Below, piece by piece: positions 20,628 to 48,415 of a DNA stretch of 64,000 nucleotides; position 1 is the first letter of the stretch; each line of letters begins with the position of its first letter. A model generated the notes under the pieces. That model searched no databases. It saw only the letters and a list, made by a program, of their open reading frames with translations, and was not told the DNA's origin. A program made the position numbers and the translations under genes. The stretch is taken from assembly GCA_018238155.1 (NCBI GenBank), contig JABCTZ010000017.1:1-64000 (forward strand), read 5' to 3'. The stretch is from Candidatus Heimdallarchaeota archaeon. GTDB lineage: Archaea > Asgardarchaeota > Heimdallarchaeia > JABLTI01.

Positions 20628-23615
20628 ATGGAAAACAAAGTAACGCTATTCCAAAAGATAACGCTCGATAATCTAATGCTACATGAATTCACTGAAGTTG
20701 ACTTAGCAAAAGAGTCAATTACATTGATTACTGGAGCAAACGGTTCTGGAAAAACGCAAATACTTGATGGAATTATTATTTGTATCGGACATATACCTAC
20801 TCGAGCAAAGGCTAAAGGGATTGGGAGTTTGGTTGGGAAAAATGGTAAAAATGCGAAAGTAACCCTTGAATTAGCAAATCCAATAGTAAACTCTCGTAGA
20901 GCAATTACTACCATGGATAAAGACCTTAATGCAGTAATTAATTCTGATCGTTTTAAAATAAATGCTAAAATATCTAGAAATGATAGTTCGATTATCTATT
21001 CAATAAATAATTCTCGGACAATTATTAGAGGACGGTTAGTCTCTAGGAGAGATATTAGACGAATTTTCGAATCAATTGGTGTTCGAGGTGACAATCGATT
21101 GGCATTTACAGGAGAAGGTACTGTAGATGAATTTGCTTCAAAGAGTGCAAAACGAAAATTGGATGTTCTATTAGATGTTACTGGTCTTAAACAATACAGA
21201 GAAGAAGTAATCGCTTCTCAAGATACACTCAGAGCAAGCATTCAAGAAATTGAACCATTAAAGAGAAAATTAGAGACAGAAGGAAAGCTCCTCAACCTAT
21301 GGAATGATGCATTGAATATTCTAAAACAAAAAAAGAAATTAATGATAATGAAAACCAATTTGCAAAACGAAATGGCTTGGTCTTATGTTATACGATTAGA
21401 AAAAAGAGTAGAGGGTCTGAATAAAGAGCGATTAAAAATTCTAAAACAAAGAAGCGACAATGAATCCGCAATTCAAAAGAAGGATGAAGAGATAATCATT
21501 CTTAGACGAAAACTAAATTCGTTAGATGACGAATTGGATTCTTTTGAGGAACAGCAAAGAGTAAAAAATAGACGAGTAATAACTCTCGAGACTCAATTAG
21601 AAAATGATGAAGATAACATTGCTAGTTTCCAAAAGGAAATTGTAAGATATTCTGAGCAAAAACAACAAATGGAGTCTCTATTAGCAAATAAGGATTTGAG
21701 TGCCAAGGATCTAAAAATTCAAGATAAACAAGAAGCTCTTGCAGTAAAATTAAAGAAACTTTCAATCCTTCAAGAAAAATGTTCTAGAGCCGAAAATGAA
21801 TTAAGACTTTTACGAAAACAAATTATCAATGAACCGGATTTTGATTCATTCACTTCTAATGAGGAAGTATTCGCGGGGAAAAGATTAACCAAATATGAAA
21901 ACGAAATGGTTCACGCTTCACAAATCTTCCTGCAAAAAGTGAAGCAAATTTCAAAATCTGACGAAATTGCAGGACCAATAATTTCTCTAATTAAGATAAA
22001 AGATGGGCATAAATCTTGGGAAAAAGCAGTAAAAACTATCATCGGTCGAAATCTCTATGCATTTATTGCTAAATCAGATGATGCTTACAGGTTGGCAAAA
22101 CGGATTTATGACGAAACATGGCCTAGATGGAAACCCCCATTATCAGTATACAAAGTTTCAGCAGAAGATGCCCAAAGAGCAACTATCACTACAAAAAAAC
22201 CTTCGTTTAAGGAAATTTATAACATAGCTGCTAATCTAATAGAGGGAGACCCTTTTGCAGTTGGATTCTTGAAAAGAACAACAAGAAATGCATTAGCAGA
22301 AGATAAATACGATCCAAATAGCTTAACCGGTATTGCTAAGCTAATTAAAACTAATATTTTAACAAAATCAGGTAAAAGTTATTACCTTTATCATGGCGGT
22401 TTCGGAAGACCGCCCGTACCGATTAATAATCCATTAGGATATCAATTAAAACCACAAACCGGTAAAACTAGAATTTCTTTTTCAAATGAACGAAAAATAA
22501 GAGTAGAAATTGCTAAATTAGAAAAAGAAAGGAGAGATCTAAAATTCGATGAAATTCAAACAATGGGTGCGATTTCAAAATTACATCAAGAAGTTCAAGC
22601 ATTAGGATTGCCTGATGAAAAAATAATCGGTAAAATTGAAACAATAAACGAACTGATTGCTAATATTGAAGCAAAAGCTGCAGAAATCAAATCACATTAT
22701 AATCAACTAGATTCTGATCTGAATATTGCTACAACTGCTTTTACTTCTTTCAAAAACTCTAAAGGAGAAATTACTCTAAGAATTGACGAAATTGCGGAAA
22801 CAATGGATTTACTAAGAATCGAACAACATAGCTTAAAAGAAAAAGGATCGAGATTATTAACTCTCGAACTAAATTATGATGCTGAATATGAGGAATTTAT
22901 TGAAGATAAAAAAGAACGAGAAGAAACCGCAAAGCGAAAAGGAGAACGACCCGAAGAAATTAGAAATTACTCTGACATTAGAGATGAGCTTAATAGAATA
23001 GAAGGACATCTCGAGTCAATTGGTATAAGCAATGTTGATGAAGACAAAATCGAAGATCAAAAAACAAAGGTCGAATCTCTTAAGAAATATATGACTGAAA
23101 GAGAGGAGCATATTACTCGATTACGTGCTGATTTAGAAGCAAGATTAGCCTTTTGGAATGGTGAATTGCAAGAAATAATAACTAACATCTCAAGAGCGAT
23201 GAAACTACTTCTAGGAGGGATTTTTGATAAGATTCGTTTGAAAGTAACAAATATCAACAAACCTGATGAGGCTGGCTTATTCATTGAAGCCATTACTAAA
23301 GGAGATGACTTTAGGGATTTCCGTGAATTAAGCGGAGGAGAAAAAGTACTTGCCATTGAAGGTCTAATTCTTGCTATGCATACTCTCACAGATTCTCCAA
23401 TTCATGCTATTGATGAATTTACTCAAAGATTAGATGAAAAAAATAAAGCACTAGCCTTTAGTATTGCAATTAGGACACAGAAATTAGCTAATGAAAATTC
23501 TCGTTTTATACCTCAATTTATTCTTTTGTGCCCAGAAGCTCTTGATGTTAAACTCTCAGAAAGCATACATCATGTAGTTGTATCAGAAATGAAGGTGATG
23601 AAAGCTGAACACTGA
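20628..23615 (+). CDS. SMC-family ATPase, Smc5/6 (ClsN/coalescin)-like
   Basis: Walker A GANGSGKT; coiled coils; hinge GPIISLIKIKD..WEKAVKTIIGRNLYAFI; signature LSGGEK; SPIHAIDEFTQRLD, like Smc6 SPFRCLDEFDVFMD. Confidence 0.88.
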   Translation: MENKVTLFQKITLDNLMLHEFTEVDLAKESITLITGANGSGKTQILDGIIICIGHIPTRAKAKGIGSLVGKNGKNAKVTLELANPIVNSRRAITTMDKDLNAVINSDRFKINAKISRNDSSIIYSINNSRTIIRGRLVSRRDIRRIFESIGVRGDNRLAFTGEGTVDEFASKSAKRKLDVLLDVTGLKQYREEVIASQDTLRASIQEIEPLKRKLETEGKLLNLWNDALNILKQKKKLMIMKTNLQNEMAWSYVIRLEKRVEGLNKERLKILKQRSDNESAIQKKDEEIIILRRKLNSLDDELDSFEEQQRVKNRRVITLETQLENDEDNIASFQKEIVRYSEQKQQMESLLANKDLSAKDLKIQDKQEALAVKLKKLSILQEKCSRAENELRLLRKQIINEPDFDSFTSNEEVFAGKRLTKYENEMVHASQIFLQKVKQISKSDEIAGPIISLIKIKDGHKSWEKAVKTIIGRNLYAFIAKSDDAYRLAKRIYDETWPRWKPPLSVYKVSAEDAQRATITTKKPSFKEIYNIAANLIEGDPFAVGFLKRTTRNALAEDKYDPNSLTGIAKLIKTNILTKSGKSYYLYHGGFGRPPVPINNPLGYQLKPQTGKTRISFSNERKIRVEIAKLEKERRDLKFDEIQTMGAISKLHQEVQALGLPDEKIIGKIETINELIANIEAKAAEIKSHYNQLDSDLNIATTAFTSFKNSKGEITLRIDEIAETMDLLRIEQHSLKEKGSRLLTLELNYDAEYEEFIEDKKEREETAKRKGERPEEIRNYSDIRDELNRIEGHLESIGISNVDEDKIEDQKTKVESLKKYMTEREEHITRLRADLEARLAFWNGELQEIITNISRAMKLLLGGIFDKIRLKVTNINKPDEAGLFIEAITKGDDFRDFRELSGGEKVLAIEGLILAMHTLTDSPIHAIDEFTQRLDEKNKALAFSIAIRTQKLANENSRFIPQFILLCPEALDVKLSESIHHVVVSEMKVMKAEH

Positions 23616-24510
23616 AGATGATACCAACAACATTGAATTTATAATAGAATCTAATTCAGATGAATCTTTAGTAGATGTAATTGAAAACAATGACAATACC
23701 TCCAAACTAAAGAAGGTCAAAGATAAAATTAAATCTCCAAAGAAAAAGACTTCTTCAGTTTCTAGTATAGAGAAGAAATTATGGAATGTCGCTAAAAAAT
23801 ACAAGTCGTTTTTCGATAAAGATGAAGTCCCCCAAATTGCTGAAAGTGAAGAAGATCGCCAAGAAGTATCTGATGCTTATTTGGAAGTTTCAACAAAGCG
23901 CCATAGACAGCTAGATTCACGCGTTTATTACTCTTTGACAAAAATGCAAAGAACACGAGATGCAAAAGTTGCTTTAGAAGGGACGACAGAGAAAGATAGA
24001 TTAAGAATGATTGCTTGGGAAGTAAAAATTCGTCTTCAACCGATTATTTTTGCTGTTGGTGATAGTACAATAGAAATGGACATTTTTAATCTTCATGAGA
24101 CAGGGGCTGATGTTAGAATTATTGAGGGAAATAGTCAAGAATTGCTGATTGAAGATAATGTCCTTGATGAGAACAGCATTGCAATACTTGATGATTTACC
24201 TCTTAGAAAACTAACAAAAGATCAGAAAACAAAATTGAAAAGAGAAATTATCGAGAAATTTGTTGGAAAGGTTTTTTCAAGAGATGATTTTAATAGAAAG
24301 CTCAACAGCCTTTATGCAGATTTGATTTCTTTAATGGTGCGTGAAAAACAAATCATCATTTTAAAACAGCAAGATAATAGATTCAAGCTTATACACGTAG
24401 AACATGAAGAAGCTATTGACTTAGAACATCTAGTTAGTCAATCACTTGTAATTATACCAAAAATGGTTCAACTACAGAATGTAGCTATTAGAAGGAGTAA
24501 GAAGAAATGA
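23605..24510 (+). CDS. Putative kleisin (Nse4/ScpA-like) subunit, probable CTG start
   Basis: Frame open 92 codons upstream of the track start; GGTGA 6 nt before CTG at 23605; C-terminal DDFNRKLNSLYADLISLMVREKQIII resembles the Nse4 C-terminal winged helix; directly after smc. Confidence 0.55.
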   Translation: MNTEDDTNNIEFIIESNSDESLVDVIENNDNTSKLKKVKDKIKSPKKKTSSVSSIEKKLWNVAKKYKSFFDKDEVPQIAESEEDRQEVSDAYLEVSTKRHRQLDSRVYYSLTKMQRTRDAKVALEGTTEKDRLRMIAWEVKIRLQPIIFAVGDSTIEMDIFNLHETGADVRIIEGNSQELLIEDNVLDENSIAILDDLPLRKLTKDQKTKLKREIIEKFVGKVFSRDDFNRKLNSLYADLISLMVREKQIIILKQQDNRFKLIHVEHEEAIDLEHLVSQSLVIIPKMVQLQNVAIRRSKKK

Positions 24511-25136
24511 TTGATAATAGATTAGAAGATTACGAAGAAGTGACAGAAAATACTCGAGATTCATCTGAAGTAGAAGAAAAATTAACAGAAGATTTTGGAG
24601 AAATGGACCCCCAGTTATTTGTTGCATTATCTTCGCGTTGGAGAAAAGAAAATGGCTCACTTGCTTTTGGTATAGAAAAACGACAACTACGTAATAAGAC
24701 AGGCTTAACGTTGATGGAACTTGAAACGCTGCTTGAAGATTTTGGCAAAAAAGTAAAAAGAATAGGATTGGAACTAATTTCATATGTTGAGAATAATCAA
24801 GAATGGTATTGTTTACGCTCGATATTTGTTGTTCCAAATGAATTGTCATTGGATGAACAAGCAGTACTAGGTACAATTATTTTCTTAATAGAGAAAAAAA
24901 CTGATCATCGAAGAAGGGAAGAAACACCAATTACTTCAACTGAATTAATTGCAAGATTGGTAAAAAGGGGCTACTACTCTGAATATACATTAACGAAAAT
25001 TCTACGTAGATTAGATAATTCTGGGTATGTTAGGCGAGGGGGAAATAAAATACGCTATGGAGCAAGAACAAAAATTGAGATTTCTTCTGATAGACGAAAA
25101 GAAATTGCTGATAGAACTGAGGGAATGCTACTTTAA
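24507..25136 (+). CDS. KITE subunit (tandem winged helix; Nse3/MAGE/Nse1-like)
   Basis: IGLELI, VLGTIIFLIE and YGARTKIEISS resemble MAGE/Nse3 FGxELxE, LxxILGLI and WGPRTxLETSK; overlaps upstream gene by ATGA. Confidence 0.7.
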   Translation: MIDNRLEDYEEVTENTRDSSEVEEKLTEDFGEMDPQLFVALSSRWRKENGSLAFGIEKRQLRNKTGLTLMELETLLEDFGKKVKRIGLELISYVENNQEWYCLRSIFVVPNELSLDEQAVLGTIIFLIEKKTDHRRREETPITSTELIARLVKRGYYSEYTLTKILRRLDNSGYVRRGGNKIRYGARTKIEISSDRRKEIADRTEGMLL

Positions 25137-25156
25137 TTCAATGAGGTGAAGATGAA

Positions 25157-25648
25157 ATGGCCGTTGTAACAACTACTACTGTTTCGGTGAGGTGTGCGGG
25201 GCACAATGGTAGAGCTACGCTAAAAGAAGCGGTAGAAGCAGGTTGGCGTATGTGTAGAATTTGTAGGTCATTTATCTGTCCAAAATGCATCGAAGAATTT
25301 GATTTGAAAATGAATGGAACTTGCCCATCGTTTATTTTTGGAATGGACCAACACCAGCTTAGTCCAGGGCCTATTCCCGTTGAAGAAGTAATTCTATTTG
25401 CAGAATCAAACAAACAAGAAGGAATTACCGGTGGGTTGTTAGAAGCACTCTTCTTTGAGGATGAGCAAATGGGTTTTATGCCTTTTTATGCTGCTATTGA
25501 AAAGAAAAAGAAAGAAGAAGAAGAGACGGATGAAGATGAATTGAGTTTAGAACCTCCAAAAATACAAGAAGAAATGTGGTCGTCTTTTGGATTTGTAATG
25601 ACTAAAAGAAGACGAGGAAAATTCATTACTTGGGAGAAAATCGGTTAA
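25157..25648 (+). CDS. RING-like Zn-finger protein (Nse1-RING-like spacing), candidate E3
   Basis: C13-x2-H-x16-C-x2-C-x4-C-x2-C-x11-CP-x8-H66. Confidence 0.6.
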   Translation: MAVVTTTTVSVRCAGHNGRATLKEAVEAGWRMCRICRSFICPKCIEEFDLKMNGTCPSFIFGMDQHQLSPGPIPVEEVILFAESNKQEGITGGLLEALFFEDEQMGFMPFYAAIEKKKKEEEETDEDELSLEPPKIQEEMWSSFGFVMTKRRRGKFITWEKIG

Positions 25649-25681: not shown

Positions 25682-26317
25682 GTGACAAAAAAACAACAAA
25701 AACAAAAAAAATTACTTTCCGAATTACTTGGTGAAGTCGCACCTGAAGAAACCCCTTCAGAACAAATTGAAGAGGAATCTCAAACTGTTGATAATGAAGA
25801 GCTTACTGAGGAAATTTTAGAAGAATATCCATTAAATGAAATATATTCGGTATACATTCTACATAGAGTCGTTTATGAAACAATAGTTATGTGTAAGAAA
25901 GCTATTCCAAATGAAGCAATTGGTATTCTCTTAGGATATAAAATGCGATACAAGGGGAAAAATTATGTCAAGGTAGTTGATTGGGTCACAGGTAAAGCAA
26001 ACCAAAGTCAAGCTTTTGCAGAATTTACTCCTGAGGGTGTAAGACAATACACTACACTAATTGATGAAAGATATGGAGAAAGTGAAAACCGACCAAGAAT
26101 AGTGGGTATAATTCATTCACATCCATTTGGGTCTAATCCACATTTCTCCAGAACGGATTATAATACCTTTCTGAATTTTCCCTATGATGCAGAGCACAAT
26201 GTATTCGTTTTAGTAGATCCGAAATCTGGTTACTACAAAACATACATGGTTCTTACAAATGAGGAAAAACAAAAGGATTTGATCGAAGTAAACTGGATTG
26301 AATATACAGCACGATAA
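25682..26317 (+). CDS. JAMM/MPN+ metallo-isopeptidase
   Basis: EAIGILLG and IVGIIHSHPFGSNPHFSRTD (HxH..SxxD). Confidence 0.92.
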   Translation: MTKKQQKQKKLLSELLGEVAPEETPSEQIEEESQTVDNEELTEEILEEYPLNEIYSVYILHRVVYETIVMCKKAIPNEAIGILLGYKMRYKGKNYVKVVDWVTGKANQSQAFAEFTPEGVRQYTTLIDERYGESENRPRIVGIIHSHPFGSNPHFSRTDYNTFLNFPYDAEHNVFVLVDPKSGYYKTYMVLTNEEKQKDLIEVNWIEYTAR

Positions 26318-26329
26318 AGAGGTGAAAAA

Positions 26330-27184
26330 ATGACTGAAAAACCACTACATGTAGGATTTTACGAGGATGACCTTGAAGATCGTACTCGAAGATATTATGG
26401 AATAGATAACCTCAAACGAATTAAAGATAGCACAATTTTGTGTGTCGGTGCCGGAGCTGTTGGAAATGAGGTTTGTAAAAATCTTGGTATGTTGGGTGTA
26501 GGTCATATTCGTTTAGTTGATTTTGATATAGTAAGTAAATCAAACATAAATCGTTGTATATTTTTCAGACCTGAGGATCACAAAGAAATTTCAAAAGTTG
26601 AAGCTGTAACAAAACGATTGCCGGAAATTGTCCCAAATACAAAGATTACTCCCTATAATGTGAGAATAGAAGAAGCACCCCTAGAAGTTTATGATGCTGA
26701 TTTAATTATTATGGCATTGGATAATGACTATGCAAGGTATATGTTAAATTTCGCTGATTTAATGTTAGAAGTACCCATTCCAATTGTTAATGGTGCTATG
26801 GGAAGATCATTTTTAGAAGCGGAAATATATCTCCCAGGTGATACTGCTTGTGCAGTTTGCTTATGGAGTGAGGATTATTATCGTTCAATAATGACTCATC
26901 AAGTAACGCTAAAATGTGATGAATTTTTTATTGACACATTACCTAAATTTCCAATGATCAGTACATTGACTTCAATTGTTGGTGGGATTATGTCTGTTGA
27001 AGCAACTAAAATTCTCATTAGTAGCGATGGAACTGGTAAATACCCGAATATTACAAAAGGGCAAGAACCAAACTTCGGTAAAATGATTAGATATGATCTT
27101 AGAAATCATGAATTAACTATTGGGAATATTATGCCAAATCCAAAATGTGTAGATGTAACATGCAGAGCAAGGCGAAAAAATTGA
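26330..27184 (+). CDS. ThiF/E1-like ubiquitin-like protein activating enzyme
   Basis: GAGAVG, DFDIVSKSNINR, CAVC, candidate catalytic Cys in LKCDE, PNPKCVDVTC. Confidence 0.9.
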   Translation: MTEKPLHVGFYEDDLEDRTRRYYGIDNLKRIKDSTILCVGAGAVGNEVCKNLGMLGVGHIRLVDFDIVSKSNINRCIFFRPEDHKEISKVEAVTKRLPEIVPNTKITPYNVRIEEAPLEVYDADLIIMALDNDYARYMLNFADLMLEVPIPIVNGAMGRSFLEAEIYLPGDTACAVCLWSEDYYRSIMTHQVTLKCDEFFIDTLPKFPMISTLTSIVGGIMSVEATKILISSDGTGKYPNITKGQEPNFGKMIRYDLRNHELTIGNIMPNPKCVDVTCRARRKN

Positions 27185-27312: not shown

Positions 27313-27624
27313 ATGAGCGAAGAAATATGGCGTGAAATAATCGTTGACGTAGAGCCTAGACAAAAAGAGTTTAGGGTAGCAGTTGAAGAAGAATCTACTA
27401 TAGATGAAGTTGTCAAAACATTAGTACAACGATGTGTAGATGAAGGTGTAGACATTTCCAAATGGGCTAAAGAAAAGGTAGGACAACCAAATGTTAGTTT
27501 CGTGTTAATGCGAAAATCAACAGGTAATACTGCCTTACCTCCTGCAGTAACTTTTGGTTCATTAGAACCAATACTCGAGACAAATGAACGCTTTAAACTT
27601 GATGCATGTGCTCAAGTTGGATAA
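27313..27624 (+). CDS. Ubiquitin-like beta-grasp modifier ending in Val-Gly
   Basis: ESTIDEVVKTL, GNTALPPAVTFGSL and ETNERFKL parallel ubiquitin SDTIENVK, GKQLEDGRTLSDY and QKESTLHL; C-terminal Gly; lies between E1 and E2. Confidence 0.75.
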   Translation: MSEEIWREIIVDVEPRQKEFRVAVEEESTIDEVVKTLVQRCVDEGVDISKWAKEKVGQPNVSFVLMRKSTGNTALPPAVTFGSLEPILETNERFKLDACAQVG

Positions 27625-27722: not shown

Positions 27723-28502
27723 GTGAAAAAAATTTCAAGAGCAAATTTCCCGGCGACTGTAGTAAACGCAAGAATAGCCGAATCGATAAATGTCTTTTAT
27801 GATTCGATGGAAGATTTCTTCAAAAAAGAAGGATGGAAATGGCAACCATTCGCACGAAAAGGTGACAAATGGGTACAAGAAGATTATACAGTAGAAATAA
27901 CTGGGAAATATCAAGATGGCGCATTTAGAGAGATACTCTTTACTGCTAGAAGAACTCCGGGTTTAATTGGACAATCAACTAAAAAGGATAAAATGAATAT
28001 CGGTTACATTCACAAGTTCTCGATATATCTACCCAGGGTGTATCCTGCAAACTTGTCCCACATAAAAATGAAAGTTATATCACGACTTTGGCATCCAAGA
28101 ATATCCATGTCTGGTAGAGGAGATGCTTGTATAACCGTAAATGGTGAAGTGGATAGAATTTTGATTGATTTGATTTACCATCTATTAATGGACCCAAAGA
28201 GAATACGTCCACCAAAACTATATCCAAAAGAGGATTCGGGTATGAATACAGTAGCTATGCGTTGGTTTGAAAAAGATGCAGAAGATATACATAAAGCAAT
28301 GCTAGTAAATTGGGATACAAAACACGAAAAAACTTCTTTGAAAGATGGTGGTGGTGGAATAAAGATAATCGGTGGAGATAACAAAAAGCAGGAAAGCAAA
28401 GGAAAGAGTGCAATCAGAATCATTCCAAAAAAGATTGAGGAAACAAAAGAATCCTCACAAAAGAAAGAGAAAAAGAAGAAGGGTGGCATGCGTATAATTT
28501 GA
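27723..28502 (+). CDS. E2 ubiquitin-conjugating (UBC-fold) enzyme with basic low-complexity tail
   Basis: FSIYLPRVYP...LWHPRISMSGRGDACI (HPN-like motif plus catalytic Cys), MNTVAMRWF. Confidence 0.8.
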   Translation: MKKISRANFPATVVNARIAESINVFYDSMEDFFKKEGWKWQPFARKGDKWVQEDYTVEITGKYQDGAFREILFTARRTPGLIGQSTKKDKMNIGYIHKFSIYLPRVYPANLSHIKMKVISRLWHPRISMSGRGDACITVNGEVDRILIDLIYHLLMDPKRIRPPKLYPKEDSGMNTVAMRWFEKDAEDIHKAMLVNWDTKHEKTSLKDGGGGIKIIGGDNKKQESKGKSAIRIIPKKIEETKESSQKKEKKKKGGMRII

Positions 28503-28795
28503 AAAAAAGGACGAATGTGCAAGCAAACGATGAATTCGATGAGTTTACCTTCGAAATTAGCTCATCAAATGCAAATGATGAGATAATTGAAGAAATTGAA
28601 AGCCTAGATCTGATAGATGAAAACATTGAAGATAAACCCAAACAAAAAACGATTAAAATTCTATCTGAAAGGGATATTCAATACAGAGAATCACCACCTC
28701 CAAATTATTATCCAAAATTCAAATGTATTTTACATTATAAAGGTGGGAACTATCGGAAAAGGAAAATACTCAAGGTAGCACATCAGGAAGACTAG
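28499..28795 (+). CDS. Small acidic/basic hypothetical protein, last gene of the operon
   Basis: TTG start overlapping the E2 stop; acidic N-half, basic C-half. Confidence 0.55.
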   Translation: MKKRTNVQANDEFDEFTFEISSSNANDEIIEEIESLDLIDENIEDKPKQKTIKILSERDIQYRESPPPNYYPKFKCILHYKGGNYRKRKILKVAHQED

Positions 28796-28940: not shown

Positions 28941-30659
28941 TTGACAAAAACTATTGTTCTAAAAGTAAAAGGTTTGTCACATGAAGATGTATGTAATATT
29001 GTGAGGAATAATTATCAATTAACCCTCTCTGAACCTGTTAAGAAAAAAATACGATTAGCTAGAAAAGCAATTGAGATATCTGTGGAATCAGGACAGAAAG
29101 TCTATGGAATTACTACCGGTTTTGGCTCTCTAAGGGATATCGTTATCCGAGAGAAAGATGCTGAACAATTACAGATAAATTTAATCAGAAGCCACTCTGT
29201 TGCTGTGGGTGAACCCGCAAAAGATGAACAAGTAAAAGCAATGATGGTTCTACGCGTTACTGCTTTGGCTAGAGGGAACTCTGGTTGTCAGCTCTCTACA
29301 GTAGAGAATCTAATTGCTATGATAAATGACAATGTATTACCTATCATTCCAAGTAAGGGATCTGTTGGCGCAAGTGGTGATTTAGCTCAACTTTCACATA
29401 TGGCATTAACAATGATTGGGGATGGTCATAATAACCTAAAATATAAAGGTAAAATATATGATGCTAAAGATGGTTTGAAAAAAGCAGGCATCCCTATAAC
29501 AAAATTATCATACAAAGAAGGCTTGGCTTTAAATAATGGTGTACAATATTCTGCTGGAATAGCATGTATGGCTATAAAGGATTCATATAATCTATTAGAG
29601 AATTCGCTAATAGCGCTTGCATTAACAATGGAAGCTCTAAAAGCTGCAAAACAACAGTTTGATGAGAGAATACATTTAGCAAGAAATCATCCTGGACAAA
29701 TAGCAATTGCTCGAAAAATAAGAGCATTCTATAAAGGGAGCAAATTAGTAAAAATCTATGGGGATGTCTATACTTGTCCCGAAGAATTTTGTGGATACTA
29801 TTACGATTCTGAAATGGGCGATTCAAATCGTGGAATTAAAGAATGGACTCTTTTTGAAGATTTGCCTGAAGATTGGACTTGTCCAAAATGCGGTTTAGTA
29901 AAGAACACTTTCATAAAAACACTGCCAAAGTTGCAAGATGATTATTCAATCCGATGTTCACCACAAGTACTTGGACCAATAAGTGATGTGATGGATAATA
30001 CTAGAACAATATTATCTCGAGAGATAAATGCTGCAACAGATAATCCTTTGATTTTCATTAAGAGGGAAGATCCACTAGAATTTGATATTTTTTCCGGTGG
30101 CAATTTTCATGGGGAACCGATAGCAATTGCTATGGATCATCTAGCTATAGCAATGGCAGAATTAGGAAACATTGCAGAAAGACGATGTGCAAAATTAGTT
30201 GACGGTTCTAGGAATGAGGGCTTGGGTGCATTTCTAATCCATAGAGAAGCTTTAGGATTAAATAGTGGTTTTATGATGCCTCAGTATGTCACCGCCGCAC
30301 TTGCTTCTGAAAACAAAGTATTAGCTTCTCCTGCTTCAATAGATTCAATACCAACTTCTGCAAATGCTGAAGATCATGTAAGTATGAGTCCAATTGCTGC
30401 AAGAAAAGTTGTTGCAATAAATGAAAATTTAGTCTATATTATTGCTATAGAAATGATGCTAGCTGCACAAGGTGTAGATTTAAGATGCCAAATACAAAGC
30501 TTGACTCCAAAAGATGCTCTAGGTGATAAGACTTTCAAAGCTTATCAATTTATAAGAAGTATAATTCCAGTATTAACTCATGATAGAATAATTTATACCG
30601 ATATAGAAAAACTAGCTAAAAAAATAATTGATGGAAGTATTGTAAAATCAATTTCATGA
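28941..30659 (+). CDS. hutH: Histidine ammonia-lyase with an inserted rubredoxin domain
   Basis: VYGITTGFG, LIRSH, MIO motif GASGD, QDDYSIRC, GGNFHG, EDHVSM; insert CPEEFCGYYYD...FEDLPEDWTCPKCG. Confidence 0.88.
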   Translation: MTKTIVLKVKGLSHEDVCNIVRNNYQLTLSEPVKKKIRLARKAIEISVESGQKVYGITTGFGSLRDIVIREKDAEQLQINLIRSHSVAVGEPAKDEQVKAMMVLRVTALARGNSGCQLSTVENLIAMINDNVLPIIPSKGSVGASGDLAQLSHMALTMIGDGHNNLKYKGKIYDAKDGLKKAGIPITKLSYKEGLALNNGVQYSAGIACMAIKDSYNLLENSLIALALTMEALKAAKQQFDERIHLARNHPGQIAIARKIRAFYKGSKLVKIYGDVYTCPEEFCGYYYDSEMGDSNRGIKEWTLFEDLPEDWTCPKCGLVKNTFIKTLPKLQDDYSIRCSPQVLGPISDVMDNTRTILSREINAATDNPLIFIKREDPLEFDIFSGGNFHGEPIAIAMDHLAIAMAELGNIAERRCAKLVDGSRNEGLGAFLIHREALGLNSGFMMPQYVTAALASENKVLASPASIDSIPTSANAEDHVSMSPIAARKVVAINENLVYIIAIEMMLAAQGVDLRCQIQSLTPKDALGDKTFKAYQFIRSIIPVLTHDRIIYTDIEKLAKKIIDGSIVKSIS

Positions 30660-31115
30660 AAATTAAATTGACCAAATCTGGCGAGTCGAGAGCTCGCTTC
30701 TCTCTTCCACCAGTATTTTCATTTTCTTAATCACTTTATTTAATCAAAAAACTAAAAAAAACCAGTACTTCTTTCTTCTTCAGTTTTTAATAAAAACTGT
30801 TGGTATTATTCCTCCAATACCTATCATAGCTAAATGAATTATGATTTCTGAAGGTGTTATTTTGGTATGTGCATTAGAATCGATAACTGTTATAGTATCC
30901 ATTGTATTTTATCCAATAATACCGTGACCATAGCCTTTGAATACGTCCAAATGTAAATACCTTTTTTGTACAAAAGAATCTTCAAGTTAATAGTAAAAAC
31001 TGCTTTTTGTGGGTAGAATGTGGGGTAACGAACCAATCCTATCCCATGCTTTCTAGATAAAGATTTTAAACTTAGCTCAAATACTTTGACAATCATTCAC
31101 TTTAGGTGGAAAAAC

Positions 31116-32639
31116 ATGACCTATACAATCAAAGGTGCTGGACTAACAATTGAAGATGTTGTAAAAGTCGCACGACATAATGAAAAAGTAAAGTTGCATC
31201 CTGACGCAATAAAACGCATGCAAACATGTAGAGATATGGTCGAAGAAAAAATCGAAGCAAACGAAGTTATGTACGGAATAACAACAGGAATTGGTGAATT
31301 CTCAGAGACATTTCTTAAAGGTGAGGAAGTCAAGTTATTCCAGAAATATTTGATATATAATCACGCTGCAGGTATTGGTAAAGCAGCTCCTATTGAGCAT
31401 GTTCGTGCTGCTATGCTAGGTAGACTCAATGTTCTCGCACATGGAAATTCTGGTAACAGAGTAGTAATTGCTGAAACATATGTTGAAATGTTGAATAAAG
31501 GAGTCACTCCAGAAGTTTGTGAAAAGGGTTCTGTTGGTGCTTCTGGTGACTTATGTTCCATGTCACAAATAGCTTTACTTCTTATGGATGAAGGAAGAGC
31601 TTTCTATAAAGGTAAATTATTGCCTGGAAAAGAAGCCTTGGCTAAAGCAGGAATCAAAGCTCCAGGATTAGAACCTAGAGATGGTTTAGCAGCAATTAAT
31701 GGCTCTAATTTTCTTACTGCAATGAGTGCTCTTTGGCTTTATGACGCATTAAGATTCATGAAGCAAGCAGAGATTGCTTGTGCAATGACAATTGAAGCAT
31801 TAATGGGTAATATGAAACCTTACACTCCAAAGCTGCACGAAATTCGCGGCTTCCCTGGCGCAATTAGATCTGCAAAGTCACTTTCAAAACTTTTCAAAGG
31901 AGGGGACTTGTTTGAAGCAAAACTAAAAGTAAAAGTTCAAGATGCTTATTCAATGCGCTCTGCTCCCCAAGTATTAGGTGCTGCTCATGATGCATTAGCT
32001 TGGGCTCGTTCACAAGTGGAAATTGAATTAAATGGCGTTGGAGATAATCCTATCTTCTTCCCCGAAGAAAAATTAACACTCACTGGAGCAAACTTCCAAG
32101 GAACTCCTGTTAGTTTACCATTTGATATGGCTGGTGCAGCAATTACTATGGTCTGTGTTATGTCTGAAAGACGTATGAATAGATTAAATCATCCAGCACT
32201 TAGTGTAGGTTTACCACCATTCCTAACAAAAGGAGCAGGATTAATGTCTGGTTTGATGTTAAGTCAATATACTGCAGGTATGCAAATCGTTGAAATGCGA
32301 ATCTTATCCGCTCCTGCAAGCATCCAATCTATTCCAGCAGCTGCAGATCAAGAGGACTTCGTTTCAATGGGAATGAATACTGCTCTCAAAAACAATCAAA
32401 TTTTGGATAATGCTTATGGTGTTCTTGGTATAGAGCTTATGGCAGCTGCACAAGCTTTGGATTTCAGAGAATTCAAATTTGGTGATGGTGTAATAAAAGC
32501 CAAAGAAGTAATTCGAAAACATGTTGATTTCCTTGACGAAGATAGACCATTGTTTGACGATCACAATGCTATGAAAGCATTGGTCAAATCATGTGAAATT
32601 CTCGAAGAAGTTGAAAAAGAAATTGGCAGTTTAGATTAA
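31116..32639 (+). CDS. Second aromatic amino-acid (histidine) ammonia-lyase paralog
   Basis: MYGITTGIG, YNHAAG, GASGD, QDAYSMR, GANFQG, QEDFVSMG; ATG at 31116 after AGGTGG. Confidence 0.88.
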   Translation: MTYTIKGAGLTIEDVVKVARHNEKVKLHPDAIKRMQTCRDMVEEKIEANEVMYGITTGIGEFSETFLKGEEVKLFQKYLIYNHAAGIGKAAPIEHVRAAMLGRLNVLAHGNSGNRVVIAETYVEMLNKGVTPEVCEKGSVGASGDLCSMSQIALLLMDEGRAFYKGKLLPGKEALAKAGIKAPGLEPRDGLAAINGSNFLTAMSALWLYDALRFMKQAEIACAMTIEALMGNMKPYTPKLHEIRGFPGAIRSAKSLSKLFKGGDLFEAKLKVKVQDAYSMRSAPQVLGAAHDALAWARSQVEIELNGVGDNPIFFPEEKLTLTGANFQGTPVSLPFDMAGAAITMVCVMSERRMNRLNHPALSVGLPPFLTKGAGLMSGLMLSQYTAGMQIVEMRILSAPASIQSIPAAADQEDFVSMGMNTALKNNQILDNAYGVLGIELMAAAQALDFREFKFGDGVIKAKEVIRKHVDFLDEDRPLFDDHNAMKALVKSCEILEEVEKEIGSLD

Positions 32640-35103: not shown

Positions 35104-35481
35104 GTGATTTTATTGGTAGAGACTAGAACAGAACAAATTCGTTGTATTTTGTGTAATAAGCACCTAGACCTTACAATGAGCGATGGAAAAGAATTGTTCA
35201 TTTGCTCGGAATGCCAAGCCTATTTTTGCCCTGACTGTTTACAAGCAATAGAAAATTATTCAGCATGCCCTGCAGCAAGATTGCTAGGAGCTAAAGAGCA
35301 TGAGTTGAAATTTCTAAAAATCCTTCCACCAAAACTAATCTTTTCAAGTGGTAATTTATCACAAATTGAAAAAAATAAACCATCTACAGTAAAAATTTTG
35401 CCCAAAAAAAGTATCAAGGTAATTGAATCAAAATCCGAAAGGAATAAAGCAGTGAAAAAAAAAAATAACTTCAAGAAATAA
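35104..35481 (+). CDS. RING-like Zn-finger protein, paralog of 25157-25648
   Basis: C14-x2-C-x16-C-x2-C-x4-C-x2-C-x9-CP-x9-H66 plus basic tail. Confidence 0.65.
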   Translation: MILLVETRTEQIRCILCNKHLDLTMSDGKELFICSECQAYFCPDCLQAIENYSACPAARLLGAKEHELKFLKILPPKLIFSSGNLSQIEKNKPSTVKILPKKSIKVIESKSERNKAVKKKNNFKK

Positions 35482-35499
35482 ATAGCATTCATAAAAGGG

Positions 35500-37212
35500 G
35501 TGTATTATTTGCAAATTAAAGCGTTCAAATTAACTATGACCGGTGAAATAGCAATAACTAAAACTACTCCAATAAGTAGTGGAGAACTGCTCAGGTTAAT
35601 GGTCATCCCAGTAATGAACGATTCAGAAATTGTAAATGCTTCCAAAGTTGAAGTTCTAAATCCGTATGAAATTAGAGTTGTTGATTCTAGATTACCTGTA
35701 TTTGATCAAACAAAAGTTGTTTATTTTGATATCACAATTCCAAAAAATTGGTCTAGTGGACGCTATTTAACTAGTGTACTGTGTACTAATGGAAAAATAA
35801 TAACCAGTTGCTATTTTTATTTTCAAGCGGGGAAAAATGCTCATGTAATAAATCGAATACAAAACCCAAAATGGATTCTTAATTATTCGTTAAATGTGAA
35901 AAATGTCAGTGAAAAACCAGTGGGTAATTTTTCAGCATTTATTGCGTTACCATTAACTATTTCTCCACAGCAAATAGTAAGCAATTTACAAATTCATCCC
36001 AGTAACCTAACTATATCAACCGATGTAGAAGGAAACCATTGGACACATTTCTCAGTAAAAAGAATGGAAGCAAAAGAATCGCGTTTATTGAGCTATAGTG
36101 CTGAAGTTGAAATGAAACCTTTGATTATCCCTCAAAGGATTTCTAAAATTACGAAAACAAATCCCTACGAAAGAAAATTCTTGCAAAATTATCTGCAACC
36201 TGAACCACATATTGAAAGTGATCATCTTAAAATAGTGAAGATGGCTGCAAATATTCCAAATAATGATCCGCTCACCTTTGCTAAACGTGCTGCAAAACAA
36301 GTGCAAAAAACAGTTAAATATGAAATACAACCAGGAGAATTCGGAGCAGCTTTTGCTATTGAAAAAAGAAAAGGGGATTGTACTGAATTTGCTGCATTAT
36401 TTGTTGCTCTTTGTCGAGCTGCTGGCATTCCAGCAAGAACAAATGCCGGTTTTGCTTTAGCCCAAAGATGGGAGAGGCACGCAACTGCAGAATTCTTAGT
36501 TCAAGGAAGGTGGATTCCTATAGATCTCACTATGCAGAGAAGCAGTGAAATTATTCTCGGATCTTTACCACTAAATATTATCGTTACTCGAGGTAACTGG
36601 ATGGGTGGAACTTTAGCTAAAGAAGTAGCTTACAAATATCAAGTTATAGAACCTAAACAGAAAGTAGATATTGATATTCTCTGGAATATTGTTCTTAGCA
36701 ATGGGAATAATCACTCAACAACTAATCATTCTGCAATAAATAAAACAGTTAAAATTATTGATCCACAAATTTTTAACTCATCAAAAATTAAACCAAAAGT
36801 AATTGAGCAAAGCAAAATAAAAATTTTAGTCGAAAATGAAGGACAAGAAGTTGATTTTATAAAAGTAACTAAAAATAAACCAATTGTTCTTTCGAAAAAG
36901 AAGCATAAAATGTTCGAGTTAAAAGTAGAAATGCCTGATGCTATTAAACAAGGTGCCTCTTTTAAACCAAAAATAACTCTTATTAACCATTCAGAAAACA
37001 ATCTCACTGGCTGCTGCGAAATAAGAGAATTTGTGGATGGAATAATCAAAATACGATCAATTGTAGGGAAGAAAATACCGCCGAATTCCCAAAGGACGAT
37101 TAAACCAATAATTAGTTTGGATTCCATTGGAATGAGTGAACTAGAAATTATTTACAGCAATCGTATTGGAAGAGTGCTATCCAGAATATCTGATTTGATA
37201 AGTCTTTATTAG
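35500..37212 (+). CDS. Transglutaminase-like (papain-fold) protein with flanking beta-sandwich domains
   Basis: GDCTEFAALFVALCRAAGIPAR, HATAEF, WIPIDLT (Cys-His-Asp triad). Confidence 0.88.
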   Translation: MYYLQIKAFKLTMTGEIAITKTTPISSGELLRLMVIPVMNDSEIVNASKVEVLNPYEIRVVDSRLPVFDQTKVVYFDITIPKNWSSGRYLTSVLCTNGKIITSCYFYFQAGKNAHVINRIQNPKWILNYSLNVKNVSEKPVGNFSAFIALPLTISPQQIVSNLQIHPSNLTISTDVEGNHWTHFSVKRMEAKESRLLSYSAEVEMKPLIIPQRISKITKTNPYERKFLQNYLQPEPHIESDHLKIVKMAANIPNNDPLTFAKRAAKQVQKTVKYEIQPGEFGAAFAIEKRKGDCTEFAALFVALCRAAGIPARTNAGFALAQRWERHATAEFLVQGRWIPIDLTMQRSSEIILGSLPLNIIVTRGNWMGGTLAKEVAYKYQVIEPKQKVDIDILWNIVLSNGNNHSTTNHSAINKTVKIIDPQIFNSSKIKPKVIEQSKIKILVENEGQEVDFIKVTKNKPIVLSKKKHKMFELKVEMPDAIKQGASFKPKITLINHSENNLTGCCEIREFVDGIIKIRSIVGKKIPPNSQRTIKPIISLDSIGMSELEIIYSNRIGRVLSRISDLISLY

Positions 37213-47170: not shown

Positions 47171-47854
47171 CTAGCTTATTTGTGTGATGATCTGAAGTTG
47201 TTTGCGAATTCGGAGATAATTTTTAGCAAAATCGGTAGCAGAATAATCTGCCCAGTGGAACTTCTCCTCGCAATCAAAGAGCTCCTCTTCAAGATGTAAC
47301 TTTCGACGTTCAAGATATTTTTCACGTTCTGAGCTTCGATCAAGAGATGAACGACCACTCATTCCTGCACGAATACTAGCTAGCTCTTGTTCTTTTTGGC
47401 GTAGAACTTCCTCAAGTTGAGCTTTCTGTCGAGTGAAAACTTTAATTGCGTTAGCAGGTTTTGAGGCAGCTGAAATTGGTCTAGCACCTTTCTCAAGTAA
47501 ATGTCTCGCAGGGCGGAGAGGCTCTCGAGCAAATAACCCTTTAATGGAATTTGCAACTTGGAATATATGATACTCTGGATTCCATTTCTTAACAATCCAG
47601 AGGTCAATAATTTTGCCTTCAGTAACCCTAGGGTGCTCTACTTCAGAAATCATTTTAACAATAGGAGGAGTAGCGGGAAAACCACCGATAATTTCAATTT
47701 CAACAGTGAAGAAGCGATTGGAAAATTCGCCCCTGCCTGGAATAAGACCTTTCCATCGAGTCATATCACCTTTGATAGGTTCAAACCCACGACCCTTCTC
47801 ATACATCCAACGTGCCTCACGGGCAATGACAAGATCTGGAATATTTTTAATCAT
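47171..47854 (-). CDS. UEV (Cys-less E2 variant)-coiled coil-steadiness box protein, Vps23/Vps37 (ESCRT-I)-like
   Basis: FPATPP...EHPRV..GKIIDLWIV lacks the catalytic Cys; coiled coil; C-terminal EEKF...YSATDFAKNYLRIRKQL; ATG at 47854 preferred over 47989. Confidence 0.72.
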   Translation of the reverse strand: MIKNIPDLVIAREARWMYEKGRGFEPIKGDMTRWKGLIPGRGEFSNRFFTVEIEIIGGFPATPPIVKMISEVEHPRVTEGKIIDLWIVKKWNPEYHIFQVANSIKGLFAREPLRPARHLLEKGARPISAASKPANAIKVFTRQKAQLEEVLRQKEQELASIRAGMSGRSSLDRSSEREKYLERRKLHLEEELFDCEEKFHWADYSATDFAKNYLRIRKQLQIITQIS

Positions 47855-48415
47855 TATACTATCAACCACTTTTATTTTCTTTTTTATAAAATTGATACTA
47901 TTCGTATCTCTACTTCTTATAGGGCTCTTACCCTTATTATTTATTTGCAATTCAACATTATAAAAGTGATTAATTGACATTATTCGCATTAAATTAAAAA
48001 TGGGCAGTTGATTTTCTCTGCTAAAATATAAAAATTCACTTATCGAACCTCGAATATTATACTTACATTTATCAACCTACAGAATTTCTCTAATTCATTG
48101 AATCAAAGAACTATTGAAAAAATCGTTTCAAAAACTATTTCCTTTGAATGATGAATTAGTTTCTGTATAGTTAATGTTATGAAAAACAACAATTTGAGAA
48201 TGAAAAAATTTCTATTGAAAGAAAGAATTATAAATAGATAGTCTCAACTTCGTCAAGTGATAAAGAAAACTTTATCTTTGTTAGAGATGCTGAGATGCAT
48301 TCTATTCTTAGTCTATGAATAAAGCTGAAACTGAGAGTGTAACCAACTCAAAGAACGAGTAGGCTTAGAACATAGCCCGAGAAAATCAAATAAAAAACTT
48401 CAAGGTTATATAAAA

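Follow-up and report, generated by a model that had tools for sequence, protein, structure and literature searches.

A RING-like zinc domain gene conserved beside a KITE gene in a second SMC operon of Asgard archaea, with genomic links to ubiquitin-like conjugation

Gene organization of the locus

The DNA analysed here, called the window, is a stretch of 64,000 nucleotides (nt) of contig JABCTZ010000017.1 (C13 in our numbering), part of a 4.08-Mb metagenome-assembled genome of an Asgard archaeon (34% GC). Close relatives are labelled Candidatus Heimdallarchaeota, and the contig of one of them has been assigned to JABLTI01. A co-directional array on the plus strand encodes, in this order, an SMC-family ATPase, a kleisin-like protein, a tandem winged-helix protein of the kleisin-interacting (KITE) type, a small zinc-finger protein named ZnF1, a JAB isopeptidase, an E1-like enzyme, a protein of 103 amino acids (aa), an E2-like protein and a conserved partner named P98 (Table 1). 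This report concerns mainly the KITE and ZnF1 genes. A first-pass annotation had described them as a winged-helix gene followed by a free RING-like gene, and had proposed that they could represent Nse1, a subunit of the eukaryotic SMC5/6 complex, in a state preceding the fusion of its winged-helix and RING parts. The adjacency is as described there: a 209-aa open reading frame is followed, 20 nt after its stop codon, by a 163-aa open reading frame preceded by a GAGGTGA ribosome-binding site. On the other side, the stop codon of the kleisin-like gene overlaps the start of the KITE gene (ATGA).

The KITE-ZnF gene order is conserved in Asgard archaea

The distribution of the ZnF family was surveyed in 400 Asgard genomes, sorted into families labelled f1, f2 and so on. 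Members were found in 68 genomes, belonging to f1 (10/11), f2 (1/1), f3 (28/31), f4 (3/3), f7 (2/2), f8 (1/1), f12 (19/19) and f29 (1/1). The distribution of the KITE subfamily in the same genomes is nearly identical (9/11 in f1, 28/31 in f3, 3/3 in f4 and 16/19 in f12). A hidden Markov model search through 1.84 billion representative proteins yielded 49 relatives of ZnF. A search for related loci with the alignment of close homologs returned near relatives and Ca. Asgardarchaeum abyssi only.

Segments of up to 20 kb around the matches were then fetched from six families (f1, f2, f3, f4, f8 and f12). All 13 fetched loci long enough to hold four genes have the order SMC-kleisin-KITE-ZnF, commonly with 4-bp overlaps, so that the gene pair of the first-pass annotation widens into a four-gene unit. 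The KITE gene adjoins the 3′ side of the kleisin-like gene or, in locus L057, lies directly 5′ of the ZnF gene in 14 of the 14 loci scored on their DNA; in L057 the SMC and kleisin genes are inverted and KITE and ZnF are still adjacent. One metagenomic contig, with a ZnF 35% identical to that of the window, has the window's order of eight genes, as judged from called genes, gene sizes and Pfam matches. Together, these observations support conservation of the KITE-then-ZnF order across deep Asgard divergence. The four-gene unit is a real and apparently undescribed system; we found no paper linking Asgard SMC operons to RING or ubiquitin-like modifier (Ubl) genes.

The 209-aa protein has the predicted fold of a KITE

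Fold and operon position support the identification of the 209-aa protein, which ends in ...YGARTKIEISSDRRKEIADRTEGMLL, as a KITE. Its AlphaFold2 (AF2) model (mean pLDDT, the predicted local distance difference test score, of 73) contains two consecutive winged-helix domains. Foldseek searches of the PDB with this model returned almost only kites, namely archaeal ScpB, MukE, ScpB, JetB, Nse1 and MAGE-A3/A4 (template-modelling (TM) score 0.45-0.47). An all-against-all search with VIA-align placed the second winged-helix domain (WH-B) of Nse1 at the top of the list (7dg2_A; Z 10.8, root-mean-square deviation (rmsd) 2.8, 88 residues aligned), and Nse3, MAGE-G1 and ScpB were matched over both domains (Z 7.9-8.1, 125-133 residues). 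Model, Foldseek and VIA-align thus agree with the tandem winged-helix architecture suggested in the first-pass annotation. At the sequence level, Pfam searches with 16 KITE relatives gave sub-threshold matches to MksE in two and to SMC_Nse1 (PF07574) in one (E=0.0021). The KITE profile found only MarR/SarA-type winged helices in the PDB, and phmmer searches of PDB sequences with KITE and with ZnF1 returned nothing useful.

The zinc domain of ZnF1

The Cys and His residues of ZnF1 are spaced C13-x2-H16-x16-C33-x2-C36-x4-C41-x2-C44-x11-C56-P57-x8-H66, exactly as first annotated. None of the eight ligands varies among 19 homologs (73-93% identity), and across 36 domain sequences with identities down to about 20%, C13, C33, C36, C41, C44 and C56 do not change. 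This conservation marks the pattern as real and under selection. The ligand set of the family can be written C-[HCD]-C4-C-[HC], with a last pair C-x9-H or C-x4-C; ligands 2 and 8 are replaced in most sequences only by other metal-binding residues, the eighth alternating between Cys (x4) and His (x9). A Trp three residues before ligand 3 is nearly invariant. Two natural variants, P0100 and P0104, have jointly lost ligands 1, 2, 5 and 6 and kept 3, 4, 7 and 8. In a cross-brace, pairs 1 and 3 form one zinc site and pairs 2 and 4 the other, so that loss of pairs 1 and 3 together is what this mode of binding predicts; these variants are the strongest evidence for it, though indirect.

The AF2 model of ZnF1 has pLDDT values of 70-87 for residues 1-88 and below 50 beyond. 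Foldseek and VIA-align matched it nearly exclusively to RING, U-box or PHD domains, among them the RING of TRAF3 (Z 5.3), Listerin, APC11, RNF4, Slx1 and the SP-RING of Nse2; the RING of Nse1 was aligned with Z 4.7 (2ct0; rmsd 3.2, 59 residues) and 4.5 (7dg2). A profile of the 36 domain sequences matched the RING of RNF4 in the PDB (E=0.002) and, over the whole domain, that of cellulose synthase (CesA; E=0.011), as well as TRIM56, TRAF6, CNOT4 and other RINGs. The window protein itself has no Pfam match at E<=1. The 36 relatives gave matches to zf-RING_4 (8 members, best 2.5e-4), zf-UDP (7 members, best 7.7e-5), zf-RING_UBOX and zf-C3HC4, all sub-threshold. An ESM Atlas feature search with the domain gave scores of at most 0.79 and was uninformative.

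On these grounds we class the modelled domain as a two-zinc member of the RING superfamily; its RING subclass is left unassigned, and a B-box-like or PHD-like identity is possible. The joint ligand loss in P0100 and P0104 and the superposition on RING, PHD and U-box domains both point away from a non-cross-brace fold. The label RING-like given at first therefore stands as far as the two-zinc cross-brace and the superfamily are concerned; as for a RING in the narrower sense, no curated RING model scores above its cut-off. Among known RINGs, that of CesA (zf-UDP) gives the best whole-domain sequence alignment and has the identical x2/x4/x2/x11-CP spacing, and that of CNOT4 (zf-RING_4) is suggested by the sub-threshold Pfam matches. 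ZnF differs from both in its second and eighth ligands and in the near-invariant Trp, and all matches to these families fall under the curated cut-offs.

The domain also occurs in longer proteins, of which ten were inspected (P0110, P0114-P0119, P0121, P0123 and P0127; P0110 and P0123 by eye and Pfam only). It stands at the C-terminus of coiled-coil proteins of about 320 aa, after a SWIM-like Cys/His motif in proteins of about 260 aa (a pattern recognized by eye in P0121 and P0127) and at the N-terminus of one coiled-coil protein of 397 aa. Its presence in several architectures identifies it as a mobile module. Proteins P0114-P0119 were considered as possible KITE or kleisin fusions and rejected: in hhalign the KITE profile gave a probability of 0.06% and the kleisin profile one of 0.21%. 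The P0116 gene adjoins a gene for a tetratricopeptide-repeat (TPR) protein, with no called SMC gene within 8 kb upstream or in the 2.5 kb of contig downstream.

Predicted docking of a conserved ZnF1 helix on the KITE dimer and kleisin

Beyond the zinc domain, ZnF1 contains a helix in which L94, L95, E96, L98, F99 and E101 are invariant in the 19 close homologs. A complex of the kleisin, two copies of KITE and ZnF was predicted as a multi-chain job with our own alignments, and ZnF alone was scored as the partner. The three ipSAE values were 0.65, 0.61 and 0.65, against 0.00 for the best of three controls, one of which had a swapped kleisin; in the calibration of the tool, 58 of 80 solved complexes and 2 of 110 mismatched pairs reach the ipSAE mark applied, figures that are only rough for a multi-chain job with own alignments such as this. 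Contacts agreed between runs to at least 42%, with a partner pLDDT of at least 55. In the model, ZnF residues 90-103 (the LLEALFFED helix) face residues 30-65 of one KITE copy, residues 107-110 (the VVPN motif) of the other, and kleisin residues 139-143. All modelled interface residues of the three proteins are conserved positions. The prediction supports docking of ZnF1 on the KITE dimer and kleisin through helix 90-103.

The C-terminal module, with the conserved motif KIQEE-W..G.V..KR.RGKF.TWE, is predicted at low pLDDT to form a helix and a beta-hairpin. ZnF1 appears to differ from Nse1 in having these two elements, the docking helix and the hairpin, and we know of no Nse1 counterpart of either.

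The SMC and kleisin-like genes

The PDB matches of the SMC protein are SMC1A, Smc and Smc6, and among PDB chains its N-terminal half (residues 8-562) aligns best to yeast Smc6. A canonical SMC gene and scpA lie on contig C17 of the same genome and scpB on C24, so that the operon on C13 constitutes a second SMC system. This genome also has a third open frame with an SMC_N match (962 aa; G000 contig C6:56133-58919), which might encode Rad50 or a further SMC-like protein.

In every locus, the gene found between SMC and KITE is a homolog of the kleisin-like gene, encoding 231-290 aa. Searches of Pfam, the PDB and PADLOC gave no family match for this gene, and its profile found nothing in the PDB. 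The open frame beginning at 23602 contains no ATG, GTG or TTG before the TTG at 23881, and the most conserved block of the family (K66, E83, D85 and R86, numbered from stop to stop) lies upstream of that codon. Initiation at TTG 23881 would thus remove the conserved N-terminal block, making CTG 23605 or some other non-canonical codon the likelier start. CTG 23605 is preceded by a GGTGA motif and overlaps the end of the SMC gene; the relative in locus L001 has an ATG at the equivalent place. These features point to a non-canonical start codon or an assembly error.

Ubiquitin-like conjugation genes and the ZnF2 paralog

The E2-like protein has an invariant HPR...C136 motif in the alignment, HPR...C replacing HPN...C, and a Lys-rich tail. 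A five-sequence profile detected this E2 in the surveyed genomes of f1 (9/11), f7 (2/2), f8 (1/1) and f12 (19/19); it was found in none of the 31 f3 genomes and in no other sampled Asgard family. Since the families that have it all carry the ZnF operon, the distribution of the E2 is nested inside that of the operon. The layout of the genes varies. In f1 loci, JAB, E1, Ubl and E2 genes lie downstream of ZnF1, and the metagenomic contig with the 35%-identical ZnF has the same layout. In f8, JAB and E1 genes lie downstream of ZnF1 and a Ubl-E2-P98 group on another contig. In f12, a divergent Ubl-E2-P98-ZnF2 unit, together with E1 and JAB genes, is found on the other side of the SMC gene.

Neither the E2 nor the presumed Ubl has a Pfam UQ_con or Ub match above cut-off, and the 103-aa protein matches no Pfam family. 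Searches of PADLOC and NCBIfam returned no specific family match to the kleisin, KITE, ZnF, Ubl, E2 or P98. Ufm1 homologs have recently been reported in Asgard archaea (PMC12962969).

ZnF2, a paralog found in E2-bearing families only, consists of the zinc domain. In the window its gene lies 18 nt upstream of one for a 570-aa transglutaminase-core protein (region 35104-37212); the f12 ortholog closes the Ubl-E2-P98 operon. These genomic and phyletic links between ZnF and the E2 are circumstantial evidence that fits an E3-like role for the zinc domain.

Table 1. Positions of the SMC operon, the conjugation genes and the ZnF paralog in the window, with the basis of each assignment
Feature	Position	Strand	Basis
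SMC-family ATPase, 995 aa	20628..23615	+	Pfam SMC_N E=5.8e-20; second, non-canonical SMC of the genome
Kleisin-like gene	23602..24510 (open frame)	+	identity from gene position alone
KITE, tandem winged-helix, kleisin-interacting protein, 209 aa	24507..25136	+	predicted fold and operon position
ZnF1, 163 aa: N-terminal two-zinc RING-like domain, docking helix, acidic linker, basic C-terminal beta-hairpin (predicted)	25157..25648	+	
ZnF1 two-zinc cross-brace domain (predicted), about aa 9-70	25181..25366	+	ligand conservation, joint ligand loss, RING-dominated matches
ZnF1 helix TGGLLEALFFEDEQ, aa 90-103	25424..25465	+	predicted docking site on KITE dimer/kleisin
ZnF1 C-terminal module, aa about 135-163	25559..25645	+	conservation; helix and beta-hairpin prediction
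JAB/MPN isopeptidase	25682..26317	+	Pfam Prok-JAB E=4.6e-9
E1-like adenylyltransferase, ThiF family	26330..27184	+	Pfam ThiF E=9.9e-39
Presumed ubiquitin-like modifier, 103 aa, end ...QVG	27313..27624	+	conserved position between E1 and E2
Divergent UBC-like E2, invariant HPR...C136	27723..28502	+	weak UQ_con match and alignment
P98, conserved 98-aa partner gene, always 3′ of E2	28499..28795	+	gene order
ZnF2, 125-aa paralog, zinc domain only	35104..35481	+	profile match to ZnF family E=1.6e-8

Discussion

We postulate that Heimdallarchaeia-type and some other Asgard archaea have a second, non-canonical SMC-kleisin-KITE complex, to which ZnF1 belongs as its dedicated fourth subunit. Helix 90-103 would dock where the KITE dimer and the kleisin meet and hold the zinc domain on the complex. 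In the lineages that have the E2, the zinc domain would most likely serve as an E3-like adaptor, bringing the E2, charged with Ubl by means of the adjacent E1, to the complex or to its substrates on chromatin; the adjacent JAB isopeptidase would reverse the modification. Such a role would parallel that of the variant RING (vRING) of Nse1 in eukaryotic SMC5/6. We hold the combination of SMC-complex subunit and E3-like adaptor to be fairly probable, the ligase activity and its substrates being the part that we infer from the company the gene keeps.

Several findings weigh against this interpretation. The identity of the second zinc ligand varies (H, C, D, N or G), the ZnF model has only moderate quality, and its fold Z-scores of 4-5 lie in a range that the alignment tool itself calls common. 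No Pfam RING model reaches its cut-off with any of the 36 relatives, and B-box and FYVE models are similarly sub-threshold. The kleisin is identified from the position of its gene alone. One full-length ZnF homolog (L058:7001-7465; 34% identity, docking helix and C-terminal hairpin present) stands alone on a bacterial-looking contig among genes of bacterial type (PlsY, GpsA, NusB and PheT), with no called gene of SMC or KITE size within 7 kb on either side. Families f3 (where ZnF is present in 28 of 31 genomes), f4 and f2 keep ZnF without a dedicated E2, and the flanks fetched for these families contain no Ubl gene (six loci in f3; up to 10 kb, as far as the f2 and f4 contigs reach). Ordinary UBC E2s are encoded elsewhere in f3 genomes. 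In these three families ZnF must therefore either act independently of the conjugation system or use other UBC E2s.

For this reason the main alternative is that ZnF1 is a purely structural or nucleic-acid-binding SMC subunit, whose zinc domain would be a B-box, PHD or FYVE kind of module for contacts with protein or DNA, whose basic hairpin would clamp DNA, and which would have no part in ligation. Besides the retention of ZnF in f2, f3 and f4, it could draw on B-box and FYVE models scoring as well as RING models, on the basic KR.RGKF motif at the C-terminus and on the precedent of the Nse1 vRING, itself structural in the Nse1/3/4 trimer (PMC8750328). However, catalytic RINGs are the best profile and fold matches of the domain, the Ubl-E2-P98 operon of f12 ends in ZnF2, and the E2 is restricted to families that have ZnF; we thus consider a purely structural role possible and clearly the less probable of the two. 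An entirely different proposal would view the cluster as a mobile defence island, combining a Wadjet- or Lamassu-kind SMC system with a Ubl module of the Bil or CBASS Cap2/Cap3 kind and having no function in chromosome maintenance. PADLOC does match the SMC protein to LmuB (E=1.9e-16) and weakly to JetC, and its JAB and E1-E2 models match the JAB and E1 proteins; the composition E1, E2, Ubl and JAB is also that of known bacterial Ubl defence operons. These matches, however, reflect generic domain similarity, and the kleisin, KITE, ZnF, E2 and Ubl have none. Defence islands are usually patchy, whereas this operon is present as one copy in nearly all genomes of a family (10/11, 28/31 and 19/19), and a relative at 72% identity has it between the same flanks (an S8 protease gene and a histidine ammonia-lyase (HAL)-rubredoxin gene). 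A defence island is accordingly an improbable explanation. Most improbable of all is that ZnF is simply the E3 of the downstream Ubl operon, its adjacency to KITE being a chance junction of two operons. The gene does lie exactly between the SMC genes and the JAB-E1-Ubl-E2 genes in the window, and the ubiquitin operons of Caldiarchaeum and of Asgard archaea, with E1, E2, RING and Rpn11 genes, include a small RING finger protein. Yet in f2, f3 and f4 ZnF follows KITE although Ubl genes are absent within 10 kb, in f12 the Ubl genes are found across the SMC operon from ZnF1 and have a ZnF2 of their own, and in L057 the KITE-ZnF pair is intact despite the inversion of SMC and kleisin. These gene orders contradict a coincidental adjacency and, as ZnF follows KITE with or without Ubl genes, make it primarily an SMC-operon gene; the complex model, which docks ZnF on KITE and kleisin, also speaks against chance.

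Caldiarchaeum-type operons and the present system have in common that a small zinc protein is encoded as a separate gene next to those for E1, E2, Ubl and JAB, and the ZnF2 gene of f12 occupies exactly that place. By gene context ZnF1 differs in being anchored to an SMC operon, with elements predicted to dock on the SMC complex, and the E2 and Ubl of the present system are highly divergent.

Several features recall Nse1. The order of the KITE and ZnF genes is that of the Nse1 domains (WH-A, WH-B, vRING), the KITE WH-B domain is structurally closest to that of Nse1, and the core spacing C-x2-C-x4-[C/H]-x2-C-x11-13-CP is common to both. A RING-bearing unit is predicted to contact both KITE and kleisin, much as the vRING, whose E3 activity is stimulated by Nse3 and Nse4, stabilises the Nse1/3/4 trimer (PMC8750328), and both proteins are linked to Ubl conjugation, ZnF through its genomic associations. 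It is plausible that the system works like the Nse1 arm of SMC5/6.

Descent is a separate matter. KITE and ZnF are encoded by separate genes whereas Nse1 is a single polypeptide, and KITE presumably forms a homodimer in place of the Nse1/Nse3 heterodimer. The Nse1 RING is of the C4HC3 type and ends in a C-x2-C pair; the fifth ligand of ZnF is Cys instead of His, and its last pair is C-x9-H or C-x4-C. The first-pass annotation had suggested looking for KITE-RING fusions in other archaea, and none was found among the 49 relatives from the 1.84 billion representatives or in the 400 Asgard genomes; a search for longer forms of KITE, weak evidence by the tool's own rating, found none either. PF08746 (zf-RING-like) is absent from the matches listed for the ZnF family, and SMC_Nse1 appeared, below threshold, with one of 16 KITEs. 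The part of the initial proposal that concerned the pairing of a KITE with a RING-like protein was borne out, while its suggestion of a split ancestor of Nse1 found no specific support: there is no fusion and no Nse1-specific sequence signal, and the ligand set differs. That one KITE paralog later fused with the downstream RING gene, making the pair a pre-fusion Nse1, strikes us as doubtful; descent of the Nse1 RING from a ZnF gene is possible, as a speculation for which the data offer no specific evidence.

PF08746 is in fact matched better by other Asgard proteins, of about 250-260 aa, which have an HExxH (M48/SprT-like) N-terminus and a C4HC3 RING and occur in f12 and f14. In f12 (L052:6208-7002 and L053:6381-7163) the RING has the pattern C-x2-C-x12-C-x2-C-x4-H-x2-C-x13-CP-x-C; PF08746 scores were 27.6 and about 26.6-26.7 bits in a six-frame genome search, reaching the cut-off of 26.6 in several genomes, and 20.1 bits, under the cut-off, when the L052 protein was scanned directly. 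The f12 genes are not adjacent to the SMC operon. In f14 (L046:9-8701 and L055:4950-11033) a cluster contains an E1 gene (ThiF plus HhH) and the genes for an HExxH/C4HC3 RING protein (weak PF08746 and zf-RING_2 matches), an AAA ATPase, an 835-aa SMC protein with a hinge, a 218-aa protein and a 172-aa KITE-like protein. The cluster is the same in six of six genomes of one genus, the RING gene lying a few kb upstream of the SMC-(218 aa)-KITE-like part, and provides a further case of RING and E1 genes associated with SMC and KITE genes. The existence of such C4HC3 proteins makes them alternative candidate sources of the Nse1-type RING.

Archaeal SMC5/6-related SMC-kleisin-kite operons of three genes have been described (van Hooff et al., bioRxiv 10.1101/2024.01.07.573240; Yoshinaga and Inagaki, PMC8665677); according to these papers, archaeal kites lack the Nse1 RING, which is an innovation of eukaryotes. 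The present operon resembles them in being a second SMC-kleisin-KITE operon beside canonical SMC-ScpAB in an Asgard genome, and differs from these three-gene units by including a fourth, RING-like gene. The Nse1-like KITE and the N-terminal half closest to Smc6 suggest that the SMC of the window might be called SMC5/6-related; the published Table S3, however, scores a JABLTI01 species, from the group to which one close relative of the window belongs, as having no SMC5/6-related subunits, so that membership in the clade is tentative.

If the KITE-ZnF pair were a pre-fusion Nse1, the eukaryotic stem would have inherited an SMC5/6-type complex already equipped with a RING-like E3 and a Ubl pathway of its own, and the ubiquitin/SUMO-ligase character of SMC5/6 would be older than eukaryotes, contrary to the published view. 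Among eukaryotic SMC complexes, only SMC5/6 is known to us to include ligases for ubiquitin (Nse1) and SUMO (Nse2) as built-in subunits. The latest evolutionary study treats the Nse1 RING as a eukaryotic invention. The Asgard system may offer a prokaryotic parallel, possibly a forerunner, of the Nse1 RING ligase, and with it the origin of Nse1 becomes a testable question. Even under convergence, the fact that a KITE-type SMC complex had independently acquired a RING and a Ubl pathway would suggest a general functional need. With four plus five small genes, the system would be a compact and tractable prokaryotic set for studying how modification by a Ubl affects an SMC machine.

Other features of the window

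A scan for promoters and terminators, based on bacterial-type signals that are not applicable to archaea, found no excess over shuffled expectation. The minus strand encodes a 272-aa UBC/UEV-like protein (47171-47989) that matches UQ_con above the cut-off (about model residues 20-111) and is unrelated to the E2 of the operon. Two aromatic amino-acid/histidine ammonia-lyase paralogs lie at 28941-30659 and 31086-32639; in the first, residues 277-324 form an inserted rubredoxin domain, and the same fused gene follows the cluster in locus L001.

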